DNA of 64,000 bases from Octopus vulgaris (taxonomy: Eukaryota). The position numbers and the translations under genes are program-made. A model generated the notes under the pieces. It did not search any database and had not been told where the DNA came from. It saw only the letters and a list, made by a program, of their open reading frames with translations. The stretch covers positions 96,100,001 to 96,164,000 of the forward strand of contig OX597821.1 of NCBI GenBank assembly GCA_951406725.2, read 5' to 3'. This document shows positions 3,665 to 51,638 of the stretch, piece after piece (position 1 is the first letter of the stretch; each line of letters starts with the position of its first letter).

Positions 3665-4160
3665 GTATGCATATGCATTTATATTTGGTTTTATTTCTCA
3701 AATTTCTCCCGGAAAGATAAATAAGCGGTTTCTAACACTTAAACAAGACTTCACTGGAATTCAGATAACACGAATTTGCTAGTAATGTGTGTATGCATGT
3801 ACGTTTGTTCTCTTTCTCTTTTGAAATTCAGAATAAATTTTGACCGGCTGCCTGCTTGGTAGCAAGGTTGTCAAGGAAAGGATTTTGTTTTAAAATCATC
3901 CTTTAAATCTCAAGAAGGTCTTGCAGACATTTATCGTCCCAGATATCGTGATCATTTGCAGTATAGTAATGAAGGATTTGCTTCCTCTTCCCAAGAGTCC
4001 AAGTTCGGCCATATTTAGCTCCGGACTGGCTGGTACGTATCCTTTTGCTCCAATAATAATTAAAGGTATGAAGCTGAAAGTGTATCTTGGGTACTGGATT
4101 TACATGGTCCATATCAACGGTCCATAAATGTCCTCGTTCTCTTACATTATTCTGACCACA
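3665..4160 (-). mobile_element. Diverged RLE LINE 3' fragment; a second partial copy at about 4200-4710 is interrupted by a SINE
   Basis: Minus frame QYPRYTFSFIPLIIGAKGYV...LQMITISGTINVCKTFLRF*, with a 3' UTR resembling the ACAT family. gaataaattttgaccggc occurs at 3831 and 4204. Confidence 0.7.
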
Positions 4161-27895: not shown

Positions 27896-28845
27896 AATTA
27901 TAATAGCAACAATAGTAATTATAATTTAACACCTGTTGTGCGATTCTGCTATCTTTTTTGTTAGTTTAAAATACTGAGTAAACACAGACATACACATACA
28001 CCTGTAAGCATATCATATACATACGCGCATGAACACACGTACGAATACACACACACACACACACACACACTTATACAAACACATATACATATGAACGCCC
28101 ATCACAACAAACACGCGACTACACACATGCATGGATAGCTTAAAACGGTTGGTACATGAGCGAACTCTTGTTCAATTTAAGTATTCATGTGGCAAGGTTT
28201 ACTAGAATGCATAACCAAAGTTTTCGGAAACTGAAAATGTAATGGTAATAATAATTCTTCGTACTACATGCAAAAGGCCTGATTTGTTTTCTTTTGTGTG
28301 GGTGTGTTCGGCTGGATGGGGTCGGGGGTGACATTTCAATTGCGTCGATTTGAGTTCAATGCTCCACTGGTACTTGTTTTATCAATCCGGAAAGGATGAA
28401 AGGCAAATTCGACGTTGGTGGAATTTGAACTCAGAACGTCATGTCGGGAAAAATGCCGCTAAGCATTTTGTCCAACGTGCTCACAATTCTACCTCTTCGT
28501 CACCATCTATATTAATAATAGTCTTTTTTTGATAAAGGCACAAAACCCGAAATTTGTGGGAAGGGGCTAGAGTATGGTTGGTATTTATTTTATCGATCCC
28601 AAAAGAATGAAAAGCAAAGTGGACCTCGGCAGAATTTTAGCACAGAATATAAAAACAACCGAAATGTTGCTAAGCATTCTGTCCGGCGTGGTAACGATAC
28701 TGCTTGCTCGATGCCTTCTTCAATAGTAATAATAATAAAATTAAAATTTGCAGGAACAGAGCATGTGATAAGTGATTGGTTGTGTCGCAGAGAAAATAAA
28801 AGTTAAAATGGTTAATAGTCAATATCAACACATGAGTTGCGCAAA

Positions 28846-37670: not shown

Positions 37671-39657
37671 TTTAGTAAGAAAATAGCGATTTGCGAAATC
37701 CTAGTGAGTGCCTCAGTCAACATTCATGCAAAATCAAGGATAACAGAATGTAATAGAAGGAAAATTAGAATTAGGATTCAGTTATTCTAAAAGACACGAT
37801 CCACAGAAACAGTAAATCCAGGGACACGTACCGATTTGAGATTAGTGCATCCATCACAGTGTATAAATATAGACAAACATAAGAATGCAGATGACGATAT
37901 GTGTAGCAATAGGGTTCAAAATAAATGCCCTTGAAATAACCAGTATCTTAGAAATCAGTTTATAAATATTCTGCTAAAATATCTCATGAAGTTCATTATT
38001 ACACTGGTTCCACAGCATCTAACTTCAAATTTAGGCTGCATGAACACACGCACCCAACTGCGTACACACACACAACTGTACACACACACACACACACGAC
38101 TGCACATATACACACATACCTTTAATAATAAATGGACAGCTCGGAGTCCCTCATTTACTACACTCATTCCATATCCCAAAGAGAGGAGTATTGATTACTG
38201 TGTCTCGTGACCAATTATAAGTACTGCATTCACATACACAGGGATGAAGTAGCTATATTTATGTTCTCTGAAAGTGCTTAAAAATCTCTGATGTGGGTCG
38301 GGTCAAATTAATCAGCGTAACGAATTATTGATTCGTTGCTCCCACCAATTCAATAAAACTTTCTGGAAAATTACGCTCAGCTGACTTACCTTATCTTAAA
38401 TAACTTTCTTTGCGTTACTTCATATTTATCATGGATACTTCTATTTGAAACGTTTACATCTTAATGCTTCTTGCTTAATTTTACCCTGTATAACTAATAT
38501 TTGATTTCTTACCTCATAATTTCACTTCACCCCTGATATAAAGCCATAATTATAGCGTTGGTTTTATAGCCTTATTCTCTACCGTTGTTTAATTCTTACC
38601 TATATGCCCATTTTTTCATAATACTTTTCCTCCTGTTAATGATACTTTCAAGAATATAATAAATAATAAATAAATAAGCAGTCGCCCTTTTAAAAATCTC
38701 CATCTCATCACTTAGTCTGCTTATCTCTCCCCTAATATATATGTATACAATAACTCTTTAGTTCCCTAAATGGATGAGTTAGGCGCCCTGGTGGTTTGTA
38801 ATAGATCTAATAAATGGAACTAAGATGATACTCTGTCTCCATAGTTCCTCTGCTTGATTGATTTCTCTATATATGTGACAACTTGCGATTTAATTTATTA
38901 CTATGATAGTATAAGTTACTCCCTTTTTCATTATATTTTGTTTAACCAGTATGGCTATATAAATTAACTATTGCATTTACGCCCAGTCGTATGAGCTGTT
39001 AGTGGAACATTTAATATTCTATGGTTTTACAGAAATCTTTTATATTTGTCGAATTTAATATGTTTATTAGTGTAACATTTCCACTAACTGTCGAAACCGT
39101 CGTCACTGATTAGTGAATATATATATTGTCAACTGCATTCTCTGTTTCTCCCCACTCACTCTCTCCTTATACAAACGCATATACACGCACAAGCATAAAC
39201 ACGCACATATTAACAAAATGCGTTTGTTCTACATGCTGTATAGCGTAAGCATTGAAACAAAGCCAGATTACAGGTCAAACAGTATATGAGCATAACCGGA
39301 TGATGTACATAGCGTAAGTTACATCATTTCCGCTCGAAGAGCACACATTTCTTTCTCGTGTTAAAAAGTCATTCATAAAGACTCACGCACATTTTCCAAG
39401 AAAAGAGATACCTTTTAAAAAATATTCGTAATATTGTTTCTCTCTATTCTTAAAATAATCATTTATTATGCTATTCAAAATACATTGCCTTTAAATACCA
39501 TTGATACATTTCCATTTCTCATATTTCAATACATATATCTCTGTCTCTACAGTTCGGTCTTTCAACATTCAACAACGCATTCTGCCAATTTCATATTACA
39601 CACACACACACGTACACAGACACGTATGCATATTTACACACAGTATGCACATATATG

Positions 39658-39860
39658 TGGAGACGCAATTGCCCAGTGGTTAGAGCAGCGGACTCGCGGT
39701 TTCGATTCCCAGATCGGGCGTTGTGTGTGTTTATTGAGCGAAAAATCTAAAAGCTCCACGAACCTGCGGCAGGGGGTGGTGGCGACCCCTGTTGTATTCT
39801 TTCGACACAACTTTCTCTCACTCTCTTTTCCTGTTTCTTGAGTAACGCTGCGATGGTTTG
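39658..39860 (+). mobile_element. SINE family C (diverged, different 3' end)
   Basis: tggagacgcaattgcccagtggttagagcagcggactcgcgg...ttgagcgaaaa. Confidence 0.75.
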
Positions 39861-40411
39861 GTTACCTGCAGTTAGAGAGTTTCTCATCTGGCAAATGCCT
39901 AGTAATGGCTTCTGTGCAGGATATTATTCACCGAATGCTAAGATACTTTGTGATCGCAGACCTTGTGTCATCGCAGTATATGGAGAAGCAGATACTCCAA
40001 GACATCTCGCCCAACGCTTTAACAATCCTGTCACACAACCGCCCTGTAATAATAATTTTATTGCTTCTGAAAGAATGAATTTTGAAGTTAAGCTTTGTGG
40101 GGATTTTATTCAGAGCACAAAGTGTAAGAATACTGCAATAATGCACGCCATTAAACGTGCTAAAGACTGCCAAATTCACTTCCTTACACTGACACACACA
40201 CACACAGACAGACACACATACAGACACACATACACATCTCTTTGTTTCTATCTTCCCACGCAATCACTTTCCCTGTCTACATTCACCAAACCTACATCTT
40301 ATTCACATTACTCCATCTACCAAAAGAGAAACCTGTCAAAAAGCGAGAAAGAATCAAAGAAAACTTCGGTAGATAAATTGGAAGCTGCTGTCAACCTCTT
40401 CTTTGAGCGCG

Positions 40412-40450
<39 letters not shown>

Positions 40451-40453
<3 letters not shown>

Positions 40454-40667
40454 ATGACCAATCAAAATTTTAGGCGCGAAACCAAGCAAATCCAAAACAA
40501 CTCTGGAGCCTCTTTTTTTCACATATAAGAGACAGACTCTAATCTCTCTTTTATATTTTGATAAGCATAACAAATGCGCAACCGGTAAATAGAACTTTCA
40601 CCTAATTAAATTACTTAAATTACTTCAATTATTTGTCAGCATTTTCTTCATTTCCTTTTTTATATAT
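40451..40667 (+). repeat. 5' pseudo-LTR of the PLE
   Basis: ataatgaccaatcaaaattttaggcgcgaaa...catttccttttttatatat. Matches 44920-45137 apart from poly-T lengths. Confidence 0.95.
40551..40594 (+). ncRNA. Minimal type I hammerhead-like motif (U3-A8, C13 variant) in the 5' pLTR
   Basis: Stem I UU-A-UAUU/AAUA-G-AA, core UUGAUAA, stem II GCAU-aacaa-AUGC, GCAA, palindromic stem III ACCGGU, GUA triplet with predicted cut after 40587. PLE pLTRs are known to carry such minimal hammerheads. Confidence 0.65.
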
Positions 40668-40728
40668 CACCACTCGTGTTCGACATCTCCTTTTTTTAAA
40701 TATCATATCCCCGCACGAGATACAGAAA

Positions 40729-42024
40729 ATGCCTACAAAAACTGAAACCACCCTAATCAACTTAAACGAAGAAATCCTACAGGAACTCAAAAACATCAAC
40801 ACCAACCTCTCTGTACTAGTCAACAAATTGGACTCTACTAATGAGGAAACCATTACCGGACACAAACCCTCCGAAATCGGCGATAAGCTACAAACTCTGT
40901 GTGATACGATCCACACCTTTTTCACCACCACCAACCCAGCCAAAAACAAAGAAGAACCATGTCAAATTGATTCATACAAACTGAAAAATCATATAATCCC
41001 AGAATGGAACAAATCCCTCAGAGACAGAAAGTTCTCCTTCTGGAAAATGATTAGAAACAACAACAAGGCCGAGATATACGAAAAATGGATGAACTCTACT
41101 CCTCTAACTCTTCCCCGCAAAATACAATTAAAAGCCATTCCCAATGAACCTGAACCTCAAAGACGACTTAGGGAAAGAATGGCATTAGAGAGACTGAAAA
41201 CAGAGATTGAACTTCTCAAATTAAGGGCCCAAACAAATGAGGAAAGAGTCAAAACAATCGATGAAGAGATCCTCCTCGTAATAAATAACAAGGCCGAAAG
41301 CCTACACATAGAGAAGATCTCCAAGTTATGGAAAGATGACTGCAACAAAGAGGAACTAAAATCCCTACAACGCTGGGAAAAAAGTGCCGCCTGGTTCCTA
41401 AACTATGAATCGACTTTCAAAACGGATTACTCTTCCAATAACCCGTTCATAAAAATGGGAAAACCAGGAACCCAACCACACAACTACTCCGCCAACCCTC
41501 CAACCTTGAACAAAAGAAGGAAACAGCATATTGAAGATGTACCTTCTTACCCCACGTCCATAAGGAGGAACAAGAACCCTGGAAACTCTCACCACCAGAA
41601 TTACATTAACGAATTTCCCTCTTCAAGGAGACGCTATACACAACAACTCAACAACTACTCGAATACCTTATTAACAAATAAAAGAGGGTCCCACTACCAG
41701 GATAGACACAACAACATCCACACCACGTGGGGACAACAAGGTAATTTTCACTTTCTCAACTCTCACAATACACAACAAACCCATACCACTCGATACAAGC
41801 ACCCACGCAGGCCACTCATATCACCACAATCCATCACAACACAAAGAAACACACACCAACACCCGCAATACAGGAACACCCCATTCTATCCACAACCACG
41901 AACCCGAACCATATTTCACAACAAGGAATATAACAAACACACAGGACCTCCTAACACCAACAGACAACCCCTCTACCCCAACCATTTTTTAGACACAGCA
42001 CACAGATACAGGCAAACAAGATAA
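40729..42024 (+). CDS. PLE ORF1, 431 aa: predicted coiled-coil N-terminal/middle part and Q/N/H/R/P-rich basic low-complexity tail; function unknown
   Basis: Uninterrupted frame from 40633, first ATG at 40729 (MPTKTE). Heptad-like segments LINLNEEILQELKNINTNLSVLVNKL and ERLKTEIELLKLRAQTNEERVKTIDEEI. Lies between the pLTR and the RT ORF. Confidence 0.8.
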   Translation: MPTKTETTLINLNEEILQELKNINTNLSVLVNKLDSTNEETITGHKPSEIGDKLQTLCDTIHTFFTTTNPAKNKEEPCQIDSYKLKNHIIPEWNKSLRDRKFSFWKMIRNNNKAEIYEKWMNSTPLTLPRKIQLKAIPNEPEPQRRLRERMALERLKTEIELLKLRAQTNEERVKTIDEEILLVINNKAESLHIEKISKLWKDDCNKEELKSLQRWEKSAAWFLNYESTFKTDYSSNNPFIKMGKPGTQPHNYSANPPTLNKRRKQHIEDVPSYPTSIRRNKNPGNSHHQNYINEFPSSRRRYTQQLNNYSNTLLTNKRGSHYQDRHNNIHTTWGQQGNFHFLNSHNTQQTHTTRYKHPRRPLISPQSITTQRNTHQHPQYRNTPFYPQPRTRTIFHNKEYNKHTGPPNTNRQPLYPNHFLDTAHRYRQTR

Positions 42025-44305
42025 CACAGGACAGGGAAGAGAAACATAAACTAATTAAAGTCATCAATTTAACCAATACAGAACCCAACCCCAACCTTCT
42101 CAACTTACTCTCCAAAGGTCTGAAATTCACCCCCCCCCACGTCCAAACTACTACGAAATGAAGGATGACATTACAGAATTTTGTAGAAAATTGCGACTTA
42201 GTGAGGAACTATTCGACCAGCACAATGAGGATGAGTCACTAGCTAGAAATAAAAGCAACTACACCCCACGAAAAGGTAGAAATAAAATCCTAGACGAATT
42301 CTGTGAGCACATTACAAACTTCCCCTACCAACACTTACACAAACCAAAACCCAAACCAAACCTCAACAAGAAAGAGTGGGAAGAATTAAACAAATTAAAA
42401 AATGAAAGATCTATCACCATTAAAGAGGCCGATAAAGGAAGTGCAGTAGTCTTAATGGAGACAGAATACTATATCAACTTAGCACTCTCCACCTTGGAAA
42501 ATGGAACATATTACGAAAAGGCTGAACACTACAATCAACAGAAAATTATGAGAAACTTAAAAACCCTGATCAACCCCCACAAAGAAGAACTCACTAACAA
42601 AGAATTCAACTTCATCACAAATTTCACTAGTAAAACCAGCCTCTTCTACGGTATTCCCAAAATTCATAAAAGCGAATTAATAAGTAAGGCATGCAAGGAA
42701 GCCACAAACTCTGTAATCAATGTCCCCTCACCAAATGACCTCAAATTGAGACCTATAATAGCAGGTCCCGCTTGCGAAACCCACCGCCTTAGCAACTTCA
42801 TTGATACCCTTCTCAAGCCGTTCCTCAAACACATTAAAAGCTACATAAGGGACGATCTAGATATGCTCAACCACCTCCCCAATACACTTCTTGCTGAACA
42901 AACCCTGCTAGTAACATTCGATGTAGTCAATCTTTACTCCAACATCCCCCACAACCTAGGAATAGAAGCTATCCAATTCTGGCTGGATAATTACTCCAAC
43001 GAACTCCCACACCGCATCAAAAAGGAATTTATTTTAGAAGGACTCAAATTCATCTTAGAGAATAATTTCTTCACCTTCAACAACAAATTCTACAGACAGA
43101 AATCAGGGACGGCAATGAGAACGAAAACAGCTCCCACTTACGCAAACTTAGTCATGGGATACCTGGAAATCACCCTCTATAATAACGTTCTTAACCAATT
43201 TGGCACCACTCTCCACACACACATAGAGAAGAACTGGAAGAGATATCTTGATGACTGCTTCATCCTTTGGCCCGAAACCGTCGAGAAGCTTAACGAATTT
43301 CACACTCTTATAAATGGGCTCAACACAAACATTATTTTCACAATGGAATACAGCCCTCAACAAATTCCCTTCCTCGACATCCTCATTAAAATTCACAACA
43401 AAAAAATAGAAACAGACATATACTACAAGCCCACAGACTCCAAGCAATACCTCCCTTTCAATTCATGCCACCCTAGACACGTTAAAATTAACATTCCCTA
43501 CAACTTAGCCAAGAGAATTTGCACTATAGTCTCCAATAAAAACACCCGTCTCTTACGTCTACAAGAACTCAAGGGCACATTAACAAGCAGGGATTACCCC
43601 ACGTCACTAATTGACAATGGGATCCAACGCGCCCTAAAACTCAGCACGCAGGAACTTAGACGCCCTAAACCTGTTACATCGAAACCCCATACTCTACCAT
43701 ACATCTCTACACACAACCCCCTCAACAATGAAGCTTTTGACACCATCCTCCAGAACATTCCTGTATTACAAAAGGACCATAGAATGAACCAAATCCTCCT
43801 AACACACGAAATCATAAAGAGCAAAAGGCAACCCAAATCATTGAAAACCATCCTAACAAATGCCAAAGTACTGCCAACCACAACAACTAAACCCACAGTA
43901 AACAAATGCAATAGACCCAACTGTGGTATATGCATCAACCTAATAGAAGGTCCGGAATTCCTTTTTAAACAAGGACAACGTTTCACAGTAAAACACAACT
44001 TCACATGCACATCAGAAAACCTAGTATGTGTCTTAACTTGCTCGGGCTGTAATGAACACTACATAGGCCAAACAAAAAATAGCCTCCGCCAACGCATGAC
44101 TGTCCACAGATCCCAAATAAAAATACAGGAATATAGAAAAATAGCATTTAGTGCACATATTGATACCTGTGCCGCACAACTCCATCCCAATTTTAGAATC
44201 TTTCCCCTCTACAAATTTAAAGACAATGCCACTCATACCCAGCGAATAACCATGGAATCCCACCTTATTAATAAATACAGACCACTTCTAAACACATGCC
44301 CCTAA
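41993..44305 (+). pseudogene. PLE ORF2: reverse transcriptase, Zn-finger-like linker and GIY-YIG endonuclease; this copy has a 1-nt frameshift and two motif substitutions
   Basis: Motifs: VINL and LLSKGLKFTP (upstream of the C9 run at 42130-42138, where the frame shifts), EADKG, FYGIPKIHK, LRPIIAG, TFDVVNLYSNIP, GTAM[R]T, YLDD (43244-43255), FLDI, CNRPNCGIC, and NLV[C]VLTCSGCNEHYIGQT...LRQRMTVH...E..LI...P.LN. The 715-aa track ORF 42158-44305 is the part after the frameshift. Confidence 0.93.
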
Positions 44306-44786
44306 CACGAACCCACAACAAACACACTTACACCTGCACACACCCTACACACACCTTTACCCAGATATTAACACCATGACACACACAAATATATGGTTCC
44401 ACACATACACATAATTGAATACGGGTGCAAAACATCCAACACTATTTTTTGGAAATGGCTGTAAATATTGACTTCACACAAATACGTTGCTTCCCGATAC
44501 AGGCACAAGGCCAGCAGAACTATAAATATTGAAAATTGTACCCACACACACACACATATATACACGCGCGCGCGCCCCAACATACATATAAACACACACA
44601 CACGCGCGCGCGCGCACACACATACATACATACAGCTCTCCCTGTTCTAAACGAACTTACTTATCCAGTCAAGCGGAAAATACACTCCCTAACTACGCGC
44701 TAAAAAGCTATTTAAAATATCCACATGACGTCTACTGACCAGCCTGAACAATAAGAATTTTCAACAACACTATTTTCGAAAATCCT

Positions 44787-45000
44787 AAACATTCACGTGA
44801 CCTCTTTATTATGGCCAATAAGAAATTTTAGGCGGGACACTAGCCAAATTTTAACTTCTCTGGAGCCTTTTTTCTTACCCCAACACCAACTTCCATTCAA
44901 ACATTCACGTGACCCCTTCATAATGACCAATCAAAATTTTAGGCGCGAAACCAAGCAAATCCAAAACAACTCTGGAGCCTCTTTTTTCACATATAAGAGA
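44787..45000 (+). promoter_or_regulatory. Putative PLE promoter: two ~112-bp units, each with E-box, CCAAT and E2F-like site, then a TATA-like box
   Basis: CACGTGAC at 44794 and 44906, CCAAT at 44815 and 44927, TTTAGGCGGGA at 44827, GCGCGAAA (reverse complement TTTCGCGC) at 44943, TATAAG at 44992. The 5' pLTR keeps CCAAT (40458), E2F-like (40474) and TATA-like (40524). Confidence 0.5.
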
Positions 45001-45130
45001 CAGACTCTAATCTCTCTTTTATATTTTGATAAGCATAACAAATGCGCAACCGGTAAATAGAACTTTCACCTAATTAAATTACTTAAATTACTTCAATTAT
45101 TTGTCAGCATTTTCTTCATTTCCTTTTTTT

Positions 45131-45137
<7 letters not shown>
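44920..45137 (+). repeat. 3' pseudo-LTR of the PLE
   Basis: Direct repeat of 40451-40667 at an offset of about 4468-4469 nt. Ends in TATATAT continuous with the flanking (TA)n. Confidence 0.95.
45019..45062 (+). ncRNA. Second copy of the variant hammerhead-like motif, in the 3' pLTR
   Basis: Identical to 40551-40594; predicted cut after 45055. Confidence 0.65.
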
Positions 45138-45189
<52 letters not shown>

Positions 45190-45433
45190 TTTTTAAAATT
45201 TTGTTCAGTCATTTAACTGCGGCCATGCTGCAGCACCGCCTTTAGACGAACAAATCGACCCCAGGATTTATTCTTTGTGAGCCTAATACGTATTCTATCG
45301 TTCTCTTTTGCTGAACCACTAAGGTACGGGGATGTAAACACACCAACATTGGTTATCGAGTGATGGTGGTGGTGGTGGGGATAAACAGAGACACACAAAC
45401 ACACGCATATACATACATGCATACATACATACA

Positions 45434-45515
<82 letters not shown>

Positions 45516-45668
45516 ACGGGCTTCTTTCAGTTTGCGTCTACCAAATCCACTCACATGGTCGGCCCGAGGCTGTAGTAGAAGACCGTTGCCCAAGGTGCCA
45601 CGCAGTAGGACTGAACCCGGAAATCGTGTGGTTGGTAAGCAAGCTACTTAGCAAACAGCTACTCCTGA
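45190..45668 (-). mobile_element. SINE family A
   Basis: Reverse complement of family A with an expanded internal (TA)/(GA) tract. Confidence 0.85.
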
Positions 45669-45674
45669 TCCTAT

Positions 45675-45738
<64 letters not shown>

Positions 45739-46412
45739 TACGTACATATGTCCATTCGAGGCAAATACTTAAATCCATCTCTACTCAGATATATATTGCT
45801 GTGCAATCCTTCGGGTCCATAAACGTTGAACTTCGCGACATTTTTCTATGCCAGAGAGCCAGATTCTAAAAATGCTAATCCGATTGGGGAATTTACAATA
45901 AGTGGATAGATCACTGAAAGAAAGATTTAATTTAGAGTTACGCTTAACGATCGTTAATTAGGGTACGTGTTACAGCATATCGATAACCCATTTTGCAATC
46001 ATTGGTGATTTTTGCGCATGCCGTAATGATTAAGAGAAATAATAATGTTCGTATACAACTACAGCTCTTGAAGACGATTCATTTCCATTACAGAATGTTC
46101 TTATTTTTAGTATCGTTATTGATCAGGAGATTTGTAAGGATTTCACAGCATCTGACAGCAAATGACGCGAAATATGTAATCTTATCACACACATTCTTAT
46201 CTCTCTCTCTCTCTCCCTCCCCCACTCTCTCTCTCTCTCTGTCTCACACACACTCATACACATATGCGCACACACAGAGAGACACACACAAACACAAAAA
46301 AAACACACGCTCACATAAATGTAAATCAATGAATATCTAACAAGGCACATCAACTTTCAGTTCGATATATCCCCTTTTGTGTTATCGAAAGCATGGGGCT
46401 TAACGCAATATG

Positions 46413-46472
<60 letters not shown>

Positions 46473-46949
46473 AGGGGGTTATATATGTATATATACATAT
46501 TTATATATTTACATGTGTATATACATATATAATTACATATACAGGGACAGAGATAAGTGTGTATGTGGGTAGGGTTGTATTTGGAGCATACTGTATATAA
46601 ATTCATGCAAATCTGCAACGCAGTCATTAAAATGAAATGAGGGCTGTTGCTTTATATCTCCCTCCGGCTGTAAGTCTCGGACAGGCGTCGTCGTGTCTTG
46701 TTAGAGATTCACTGGAAATGAACTAATTTCATTCGTAGGTATGTAGTCTAACACTTCTGTGAATATATATCTGTTATTGTAAACTGAGTAAAAAATCGAG
46801 AAAGAGAAAAATACGAAAAATTGGAATGACCTAAGAAAACGATTTTTAGTAAATCAAAAAGAGAGGTTTTGCAAATGAACACTGGATAAAAAGATATAGA
46901 GATATTAAGCCGCTGGCTATTGTAGCAGAGCTGAATGTATTCGGAGTAA

Positions 46950-47833
46950 TTTTCTGTATAGAAATTCTAAACAGTTTCTTTTTCAATGCGTTCCTCCGTT
47001 ATCAACAATTGCAACCATCAGTGGGGTCTCTGTAAAGACAAACTCACTGGTTAATCTACTCTTTTCTGCCAGTCACCAGTGGACTCTTGCCTCGGAAAAA
47101 TTTGATGAAAGCGGTGTGCTTGCTCTCAATATCAACAAAATTTTCTACCATGTTTTGCATGAAACTACCTGATGAAACTACCCAGCCTTAGGGTTCATTC
47201 GTTCATTTGTTGAAGGAATTCTTTCTTTCCTTTATACTATCAACTTCCATGTACCCTAGGTTTCAATTTCAACTCTCTTCCGCCTACACATCAATGAGTC
47301 ATTTGACACTAGATAAAACAACAACCACTACGATATATATATATAGGCGTAGGAGTGGCTGTGTGGTAAGTAGCTTGCTAACCAACCACATGGTTCCGGG
47401 TTCAGTCCCACTGCATAGAATCTTGGGCAAGTGTATTCTGCTATAGCCCCGGGCCGACCAATGCCTTGTGAGTGGATTTGGTAGACGGAAACTGAAAGAA
47501 GCCTGTCGTATATATGTATATATATGTATGTGTGTGTGTGTTTGTGTGTCTGTGTTTGTCCCCCTAGCATTGCTTGACAACCGATGCTGGTGTGTTTACG
47601 TCCCCGTCACTTAGTGGTTCGGCAAAAGCGACCGATAGAATAAGTACTGGGCTTACAAAGAATAAGTCCCAGGGTCGATATGCTCGACTAAAGGCGGTGC
47701 TCCAGCATGGCCGCAGTCAAATGACTGAAAAAAGTAAAAGAGTAAAAGAGTAAAAGAGTATATACACAACAAGAAATATGTTGTATGTAGAGTCATTGAC
47801 CCAAATTCAATGTTTGTTCTATAACCAATGCTT

Positions 47834-47871
<38 letters not shown>

Positions 47872-48400
47872 AAGATTTACCAACCATGCATCATCCACTC
47901 GTATCTTTAGGTACTACATAGCAAAGCAGCATTAGCTGCATAAACAGTGACCTCGAAAGAATCTTCCATTATTGCCATTTTTAGTAGGAAGAAAAAGAAA
48001 CCGCTGCTGATTAATATCAAGAACATCATTTAACACAGATAGGATTGCATCTCAGTGATTAGCCCTTCTCTTTACAATTATTGATATTGTACAAAGATCA
48101 GGAGAAGGCCACAATGGACTATTGGTCTCACAATTGGAGCAGTGCTGTTGCAACACATAGAGACATCCTTGGCCGCATCTGGAAAAGTGATATGCATAAT
48201 GTACCACAAAGACACGCCCCGGCTTCTGGCCCACAGGTGCGCTGTCTTCTCTCTGTGCCGTTTCTAGCGGAACTCTAACAGCCTCAGCTCTGGTTGAGCA
48301 TAAGCCATCTCCTTAAAAGTACTCATATCCCACTCATCGTTGCTCCTCTTACACCGTTTCTTGTGTCCATATTTGCAGATTCTACATTAATCTTTGCGTC
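46950..48400 (+). mobile_element. Ancient Jockey/L2-like LINE RT remnant interrupted by a SINE
   Basis: ESGVLALNINKIFYHVLH..KLPS (compare ALDISKAFD.VWH..KL), INSDLERI, and LYKDQEKATMDYWSHNW (compare LYKAQIRP.MEYCSH.W). Confidence 0.55.
47346..47760 (+). mobile_element. SINE family A
   Basis: Nearly identical to 4260-4673. Confidence 0.9.
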
Positions 48401-50447: not shown

Positions 50448-51295
50448 TTATATACTTTATATACTTTATGCACAATTTTATATACTTAATTACACAGCAC
50501 TCATAAAATAAACATTCACTATTTTTTCCCGATACAACCAGCCTTTAGTTAAATTGCATATATCTGCCGCGTAAATAAGCGTGAATAGAACGAAATTTTG
50601 AGTCATTGTAAATACAGGGTAACATTTTTGTTGCTTACGTTGGGTGTCAATATTCAATGGATTCAAAGGAGAGTTACCTTCCTTAGACTGTAGGTAATTT
50701 TTATCACAGGTAATAAGATCTGTGTCTTTTTGACTCCCACCAGTGCTAACAGAGCGTATTCCAGCATGACCTTTACTAACGTATAAGATCCAGAAACAAT
50801 GCTCTCAAATATCTTGTTTTTCAGCAATCATTTCCCGCTAGAACAATGTTCTCGTTTGCATTTCTAAACGTGGTCTTTTATATACTTTCTTAAATGACGA
50901 ATTCAATCGAAATTATACATATTTATATAATACTCTCCAGATGTCTCATTTTTCGTCTGCCCGTCTGTCTGTGCGTGTGTGTGTGTAATATTTCTTTGGT
51001 GCGTCTTTTGAAAGAGATGTGGTATTGATATACTATGTAACTACCTAATCCATTCCGTTCATCCACAGATTTATTAAAGCACTATTAGCAACTTTCCCAT
51101 ACTATATGGTGGAGTTGTGTAGTGACTGTCACCTCCTCTGAAATTCCAATTCAATATGGGACGAAATGTATTGGATATATTGATTAATAAACATTATTGA
51201 TTGATTGTCATTTGAGGTTAACATACTTTTTGTACCACAACTATTTTGGATCACACTAATTTAAATATATATATATATATATTTTCTCTTTAAAC

Positions 51296-51638
51296 TTTAC
51301 CCTTTTACTTGTTACAGTCATTTGACTGTGGCCATGTTGGAGCACCGCCTTTAGTCGAGCAAATCGACCCCAGGACTTATTCTTTGTAAGCCTAGTACCT
51401 ACCTATTCTATCAGTCTCTTTTGCCGAACCGCTAAGTTACGGGAACGTAAACACACCAGCATCGGTTGTCAAGCGATGTTACGCACACACACATACTTGT
51501 ATATATACATACGTACGACTGGCTTCTTTCGGCCCAAGGCTATAGTAGAAGACACATACCCAAGGTGCCACGTAGTGGGACTGAACCCGGAACCATGTGA
51601 TTCGTAAGCAAGCTACTTACCACACAACCACTCCTACG

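Follow-up and report, generated by a model that had tools for sequence, protein, structure and literature searches.

A fixed C13 in the minimal hammerhead of an octopus Penelope-like element family, and retrozyme chimeras that begin at its predicted cut site

The window, that is, the whole stretch of 64,000 nucleotides of Octopus vulgaris DNA analysed here, contains a repeat whose two pseudo-LTRs (pLTRs) each carry a hammerhead motif with an altered core, which raises the question of whether such a motif still cuts RNA and of what part is played by the start codon and the GU located within it. Our reading, to which a probability of roughly 0.6 is given, is that the family's own core, with C rather than A at position 13, still cuts RNA after the GUA triplet, at a low rate and probably as a dimer with the help of protein; it is based on sequence comparison and predicted folds. 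The repeat is a Penelope-like element (PLE), Neptune-like and inserted in (TA)n, with the following features.

40412 to 40453, no strand: (TA)n target microsatellite, 5' side
40451 to 40667, + strand: 5' pLTR, 217 nt
40551 to 40594, + strand: minimal type I hammerhead, 5' copy, with its core at 40558-40587
40574 to 40588, + strand: AUG in stem II, opening a 4-codon upstream ORF that is not conserved in sister families
40581 to 40586, + strand: palindrome ACCGGU, which is predicted to form stem III between the two strands of a dimer
40587 to 40588, + strand: predicted cleavage site, and the family position at which the retrozyme chimeras begin
40656 to 40703, + strand: the two 3' end points of the window's PLE family, after the T-run or after a "tail" of about 40 nt
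40729 to 42024, + strand: ORF1, 431 aa, with ATG 40729 as the likely true start
41985 to 41991, + strand: heptamer T TTT TTA in the phase of ORF1, likely a -1 slippery site, which also reads as a TTTTTTAG acceptor
41985 to 44305, + strand: ORF2, with RT, Cys linker and GIY-YIG endonuclease
44919 to 45135, + strand: 3' pLTR
45019 to 45062, + strand: hammerhead, 3' copy, an identical 44-mer with a predicted cut after 45055
45132 to 45187, no strand: (TA)n target microsatellite, 3' side

Between the RT and the C-terminal GIY-YIG domain, which begins at 44027, ORF2 contains a CX4CX2C linker at 43907 (CNRPNCGIC), which has the CX2-5CxxC form given for Neptune and Nematis (PMC8557442). The RT, this linker, the C-terminal GIY-YIG and the (TA)n target, as well as partial tandem and inverted copies, are shared with the Neptune clade (Craig et al. 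2021, PMC8557442); pLTRs, a tail and inverted copies that are truncated are further Neptune features found here. The element can be classed as Neptune-like on its linker and target, rather than on a tree against named references. The two pLTRs differ in the length of the T-run and at the end of the repeat, and the two 3' end points of the family would match the two RT start sites of PLEs described in PMC11167929 (here and below, statements on PMC4209133, PMC11167929, PMC3088659, PMC6789731, PMC7229834, PMC4075628, PMC9901934 and PMC7092961 refer to parts of these papers). With PAc, a Poseidon element of Anolis (Frangieh et al. 2024, PMC11167929), the family shares a hammerhead near the ORF start, two 3' ends with an optional tail, and AT-rich targets. 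No Pfam family was matched by ORF1; the one homologue found likewise has an RFLD-type motif at its C-terminus. The window copy is defective, its RT frame being broken by a frameshift in a C-rich stretch near 42131, and a second sign of this is the RT motif at 43106-43120, which reads GTAMR against GTAMG in relatives. Among the 30 best-matching copies, 12 are open up to the end of the fetched stretch. The exact core pattern has 1,917 matches in the host genome and its reversed control none, corresponding to about 2,000 copies, and about 100% identity to the pLTR of the window is reached by the 40 pLTR matches that rank best; judged by these copies, the family is young and large.

It can be observed that what had been claimed for the letters of the motif is correct. 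The same 44-mer stands in both pLTRs, its core reads UUGAUAA...GCAA letter by letter (U3 at 40558, U4, G5 at 40560, A6, U7, A8 at 40563 and A9, followed in the 3' box by G12 at 40578, C13 at 40579, A14 and A15.1 at 40581, with A17 at 40587), and a distance of 4468 nt does separate the two predicted cut sites by their coordinates, one cut falling after 40587 and the other after 45055. Stem II pairs GCAU (40565-68) with AUGC (40574-77) and is closed by G10.1-C11.1, the closing pair that marks members of the class. The type I geometry, described as complete in the initial annotation, is so with regard to stem II and the palindrome. Stem I, in contrast, reaches 4 bp (40554-57/40588-91) only in the allele of the window, which needs T40590. 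Among 85 copies selected through a downstream anchor, 5 carry this T and 80 have A, leaving 2 bp beside the core in the common allele, where the class calls for a minimum of 2-3 bp. As a single strand, the sequence is predicted to fold into stem II only (z 0.44), the full monomer hammerhead lying at +6.8 kcal/mol and the one-sided dimer hammerhead at -13.1. In the two-strand cofold (-15.9), pairing takes place via the palindrome ACCGGU, in agreement with the dimer type that had been proposed. With C13 and +6.8 kcal/mol, the motif lies outside the canonical hammerhead of the PMC3088659 consensus and the Rfam families, defined by an unchanged core and a stem III that is stable in the monomer.

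Kinship with other hammerheads was analysed by a covariance model (R1) built from 17 relatives outside the window's family. Over the 64 kb, both copies of the motif come out on top at 29.9 bits (E 2.9e-5, on a rough calibration), followed by the next-best match at 15.5 bits. The latter, located at 28524-28563 (E 0.26, no palindrome), is possibly a decayed motif or a chance match. The relatives were found with an alignment query against metagenome and genome contigs, in which single-protein scans gave none, and they carry the motif at the same place, 3' of the endonuclease; the palindrome is 6 nt long, and most have C3-G8 and GAAA. In the 17 rows, 86.8% of the alignment cells in stems are paired, compared with 56.5% after shuffling and 31-44% in slid controls; at positions 3 and 8, ten rows have C-G and seven have U-A. 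It should be noted that these 17 were hand-picked from pattern matches and are mutually related (L109, L120, L146, L164 and others were omitted), and that a tally of 15 rows was likewise hand-picked. For this reason, the first 30 GAAA-type motifs of the host genome, taken by position, provide the less biased test; here the stem I pairs hold in 83 of 90 cases versus 46.8 after shuffling, for rows that fall into few families and are not independent. Covariation among related pLTRs had been named as a check on the motif, and covariation is seen in all stems of the 17 relatives and in stem I of the 30 host motifs. Rfam gave no hammerhead family for 38000-48000 at E up to 10, nor did it match any of seven control loci, five of them with GAAA-type motifs, so that its miss says nothing about C13.

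Situated in both pLTRs of an element with RT and GIY-YIG, the location expected of PLE hammerheads, the motif is by its letters and position a PLE minimal type I hammerhead. The closest known systems are the metazoan PLE minimal hammerheads, including the U3-A8 form of S. mansoni (Cervera and de la Pena 2014, PMC4209133), with which it shares type I topology, presence in both pLTRs, a short stem I, a palindromic stem III for dimer formation, U3-A8 and H at position 17. It differs from them in having C13 rather than A13 and no extra nucleotide between 9 and 10.1, and the family differs further in a stem I of mostly 2 bp and in the chimeras that mark its cut site. In an older sister PLE (family B; L031-L047, L078-L103), stem II is GCGU/ACGC and an extra U is found between stem I and U3, which could pair with A17 in a manner resembling the 2a insertions of PMC3088659.

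The pair U3-A8 had been put forward as an unusual and compensatory change. Compensatory it is, being listed among the natural, active covariations (PMC3088659). Its unusualness was not borne out: U3-A8 was already in print for PLE hammerheads, with about 1,300 matches in S. mansoni (PMC4209133), as was a start codon inside such a hammerhead (PMC11167929), and it is the norm in the host genome, where 30 GAAA-type motifs were sampled and 29 of them have it. At least 12,439 matches were obtained there for the pattern in its GAAA form with the ACCGGU palindrome, in many families (control 183). In several of these motifs, stem II is closed by a U-U pair or by just 2 bp. For the GCAA form, 2,101 matches were obtained (control 50), the window's family making up 99 of the first 100 listed. 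In place of the GAAA box (G12 A13 A14 A15.1) this family has C13, in 83 of 83 copies picked by the downstream anchor, i.e., unselected; one copy with A13 was found. By this letter, the motif is a variant of its class rather than a consensus member. Going by these counts, C13 is a fixed change of one family against a background that keeps A13. In the literature, no report of A13C was found; Lunse et al. 2017, reportedly with about 150,000 PLE variants, could list such a variant. The natural core variants of Perreault et al. (2011, PMC3088659) share U3-A8, and those named in the parts of that paper referred to here are A6C, A6a, U13a, U15.1-A16.1 and 2a/2b insertions, not A13C; core mutants in repeats were set aside there as cryptic.

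Regarding activity, changes to A13 cost 10-100 fold, below the cost of changes to G5, G8 or G12 (PMC4075628, citing earlier mutagenesis), and pairwise mutagenesis, as given for the CUGA region, resulted in low activity for core changes except the 3-8 swap (PMC9901934). The 56 motifs in Fig. S3 of PMC4209133 comprise 55 with GAAA and one with AGAAA, a box that the search itself required. Since GAAA is kept by these motifs and by the other families of the host, selection seems to act on A13, and C13 may have arisen as damage. Together with the loss of stem I, A13C would be consistent with a motif that is a dead relic and merely travels with a successful element, a reading that we consider quite improbable; it is opposed by the 30-nt core, in which changes are scattered only, although the subfamilies across which they occur share differences in their flanks. 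If the C13 core is active, hammerhead searches rely on a consensus that is overly narrow at a position regarded as invariant, and if it is inactive, the case would be one of natural trans-rescue between dimerising ribozymes, or of a dispensable ribozyme. A contact between A13 and C17 is in print (PMC7092961). The swapped combination C13-A17 was considered as a requirement for C13 and rejected, A17 being common here together with A13 (17 of 30) and U17 being found in the one other C13 copy seen in a pLTR, that of the metagenome relative L129. The two pLTRs of this relative (160-203, 4093-4136) disagree, GCAA standing in one and GAAA in the second, which makes this an independent A13C, possibly a plain mutation.

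In vivo evidence for cleavage by PLE hammerheads was described as absent in PMC4209133, and no RNA ends at the cut site were found in the experiments reported in PMC11167929. The host genome itself provides such evidence indirectly. It contains a tandem family resembling retrozymes, in which the unit is about 359 nt long and stem I has 6 bp (L350, C1:20001500-20005500; L423-L450). This family fits the definition of a non-LTR retrozyme as a non-coding tandem unit of 170-400 nt, whereas the element of the window, with its coding unit of 4468 nt, does not. One retrozyme variant, with 271 core matches, has U3 opposite G8 and an 8-nt palindrome. At the parent retrozyme loci, the core is followed by the retrozyme's own 3' arm (CGUAUG-like) in 27 of 30 fetched. 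The query for chimeras consisted of the retrozyme core and then a letter other than its own C, plus a non-G 17 bases on, the sequence that follows being otherwise left free. Its 18 matches comprise 12 C-to-T variants of the parents, one unrelated sequence and five joins to the PLE family of the window, the latter being arms that belong to three insertion sites, namely C1:1716103, which has a local duplicate, C5:142466230 and C15:13484389. The PLE part starts at the predicted first base, equivalent to 40588, in four of the five arms and one base later in the fifth. The retrozyme 5' half ends at its own cut site GUC with C17 retained, so that there are simpler readings than a template switch at the GU which both sequences share. 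The position of the cut had been predicted from sequence before the chimeras were found, and is now independently marked by three chimera sites.

The retrozyme halves belong to two alleles, which segregate 12:8 among the parents, and the PLE halves show three different downstream alleles, which also segregate in the parent family; their combinations differ at the three sites, implying at least two and probably three independent joins. Under a uniform null over 100 nt with a tolerance of two positions, the chance is 7e-4 for two joins and 2e-5 for three. If the motif were a relic, the chimeras would have to reflect one old event followed by recombination, or an unrelated nuclease or RT stop at the A-run; allele combinations that differ on both sides of the three joins argue against this, as does the chance of only 1-3% that even a single join hits the cut position. 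At C5, an inverted insertion, the junction is present in both arms, which suggests that the template was already chimeric before insertion. The alleles in the chimeras come from sister subfamilies instead of the one to which the window copy belongs, and what the chimeras attest is a 5' end at this position rather than the identity of the core that produced it. No reverse chimera, with a 5' half of the window's family on the retrozyme 3' arm, occurred among 9 matches, and none with the 5' half of another PLE family among 10. A literature report of in vivo PLE chimeras was not found; the family-wide A13C and the cut-site chimeras are the two features for which no published report was encountered. 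The joins at the three sites point to cleavage and ligation in vivo and make it likely that the predicted site is cut in living cells. Chimeras joined at the cut sites of two ribozymes amount to indirect genomic evidence for in vivo cutting, and wherever an assembly contains PLEs as well as retrozymes, searching for such chimeras is a cheap test.

Within a dimer, each core acts on the triplet of the partner strand, and any A13 relative with the palindrome could therefore supply the core. The C13 core might accordingly be inactive and GUA be cut by an A13 relative that shares ACCGGU. This would account for the chimeras and the tolerance of C13 alike; the many GAAA-type motifs with the same palindrome counted above offer themselves as partners, and the 5' arm of family F provides the same 2 bp beside the core. 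It would, however, depend on an encounter between two unlike transcripts and on their pairing over 6 + 2 bp, and a chimera with the 5' half of such a partner is absent among the 10 matches mentioned; we regard rescue by a relative as unlikely.

The family's own core is preferred here as the source of the cut, which would leave a 5'-OH end at 40588. Before reverse transcription, this end could be joined to the cut end of the retrozyme by a ligase of the RtcB type; an RT jump between the two cut ends would be an alternative that needs the same ends. A circle of the 4468-nt unit could arise by the same chemistry. Retrozymes are circularised by RtcB (PMC7229834), and RtcB joins U6 to L1 RNA prior to retrotransposition (PMC6789731). 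The U6/LINE-1 chimeras (Moldovan et al. 2019, PMC6789731) can be likened to the present ones in that an RNA with a 2',3'-cyclic phosphate is joined to a 5'-OH retroelement RNA and then retrotransposed, the ends being predicted ones in our case. They differ in that both ends are hammerhead cut sites here and the partner is a retrozyme, whereas the L1 part is variably truncated there. With regard to help from protein, the hammerhead of the Anolis PLE cuts only with the element's own protein (PMC11167929). A fuller version of the preferred reading is more tentative, with odds that we put somewhat below even: the C13 hammerhead is active in vivo, possibly through C13-A17 restoring the A13-C17 contact in swapped form, and the chimeras record cutting and ligation, retrozyme and PLE RNAs sharing particles. 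Activity of C13 in vivo would support a circular PLE intermediate and PLE-driven mobility of retrozymes.

A subfamily with an insert of about 200 nt in the cut-site A-run (L415-L419, L057, L333) includes full-length copies that are 94-95% identical to the window element. By visual count, about 48 among the first 100 listed matches, out of a total of 247, belong to it. A reading of this subfamily as hammerhead-less was discarded, as the core is kept and the insert comes after it. Its spread implies that mobility probably does not depend on an intact motif. Such amplification would also fit a relic, and the same can be said of hammerhead mutants that have no effect on PLE insertion in vitro, in a system where cleavage needed protein (PMC11167929), and of Naiad elements, which lack hammerheads (PMC8557442). 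A few fold-back copies begin at the cut site, but, with microhomology in the A-run and in small numbers, they do not amount to evidence for an excess of plain 5' truncations there. Fold-back insertions with both arms starting in the cut-site A-run are L369, L371, L373, L374, L398 and L399, the last two having exactly four As in both arms around a 20-nt spacer.

The initial annotation had further assigned the AUG in stem II as the start of the element and the GU of the triplet as a splice donor, making cleavage, splicing and initiation mutually exclusive. Both are present as letters, but the roles were not upheld. Unspliced, AUG 40574 encodes M-R-N-R-stop, and spliced to 40639, 40719 or 40725 it opens 38, 15 or 13 codons; of the four acceptors tested, only 41992 places it in frame with the N-terminus of the RT. 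A switch by which AUG 40574 becomes the RT start, with GU 40585 joined to 41992 and ORF1 removed, can draw on this in-frame join, on PLE introns that overlap the pLTR, that of D. virilis ending at helix I (PMC4209133), and on TTTTTTAG at five of seven junctions. The join, however, has a prior of 1 in 3 of being in frame, two of the seven junctions have TTG, and the AUG is missing at that place in 30 of 30 sampled sister motifs. The GU is needed by the ribozyme core anyway, and the letters after it are not donor-like, the hexamer being GTAAAA in 68 of 73 family copies and GTACTG, GTCAAG or GTTGGG in relatives. The switch, and with it the proposed mutual exclusion, is very unlikely. A matching splice joint (40584/41992) was found in none of eight contig sets, which stem from 8 of 24 sequencing runs with none recorded as RNA, nor did contig ends pile up there; contigs show presence, not absence. 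Contig ends at 40585 are accounted for by sequence variants at 40555.

We infer instead that the AUG and the GU inside the ribozyme would be by-products of the letters of stem II and the core, that translation would start at ATG 40729, and that the RT would be reached by -1 slippage at 41985-41991. In PAc the ORF starts at stem II (PMC11167929), whereas in the window the stem II AUG gives 4 codons and ORF1 begins 141 nt past the cut. The corresponding distance is 111 nt in L125, 121 in L128 and 167 in L129, and 342 nt in the distant relative L162. T TTT TTR stands in the phase of ORF1, with ORF2 in the -1 frame, in seven of seven intact close relatives including the window (the others being L109, L125, L126, L128, L129 and L136). 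The scan gave it in 8 of 18 rows, one locus being counted twice; the misses were more distant elements, one decayed copy and L137, where the T-run lies past the scanned 200 nt. Five of the seven heptamers also resemble a TTTTTTAG acceptor and two have no AG after the T-run, so that, with the heptamer kept in all seven, a slippery site is more likely than an acceptor. The RT frame is likely reached via this conserved site, 3' of which no stimulatory hairpin is predicted in the window (0.0 kcal/mol). The conserved layout of ORF1, -1 shift and ORF2 bears on RT expression in these elements. Compared with Neptune through the text of PMC8557442 rather than the image of its Fig. 1, the window differs in this separate 431-aa ORF1 overlapping ORF2; the legend of that figure refers to a frameshifted ORF1 in some PLE types, and a statement on programmed frameshifting at this heptamer in Neptune was not found in the literature.

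Animal-type PLEs also occur on contigs filed as bacterial metagenome-assembled genomes (L108-L124), where host contamination is the likely source. Around the element of the window, short interspersed repeats are located at 39660-39830, 45200-45372, 47561-47733 and 51278-51493.
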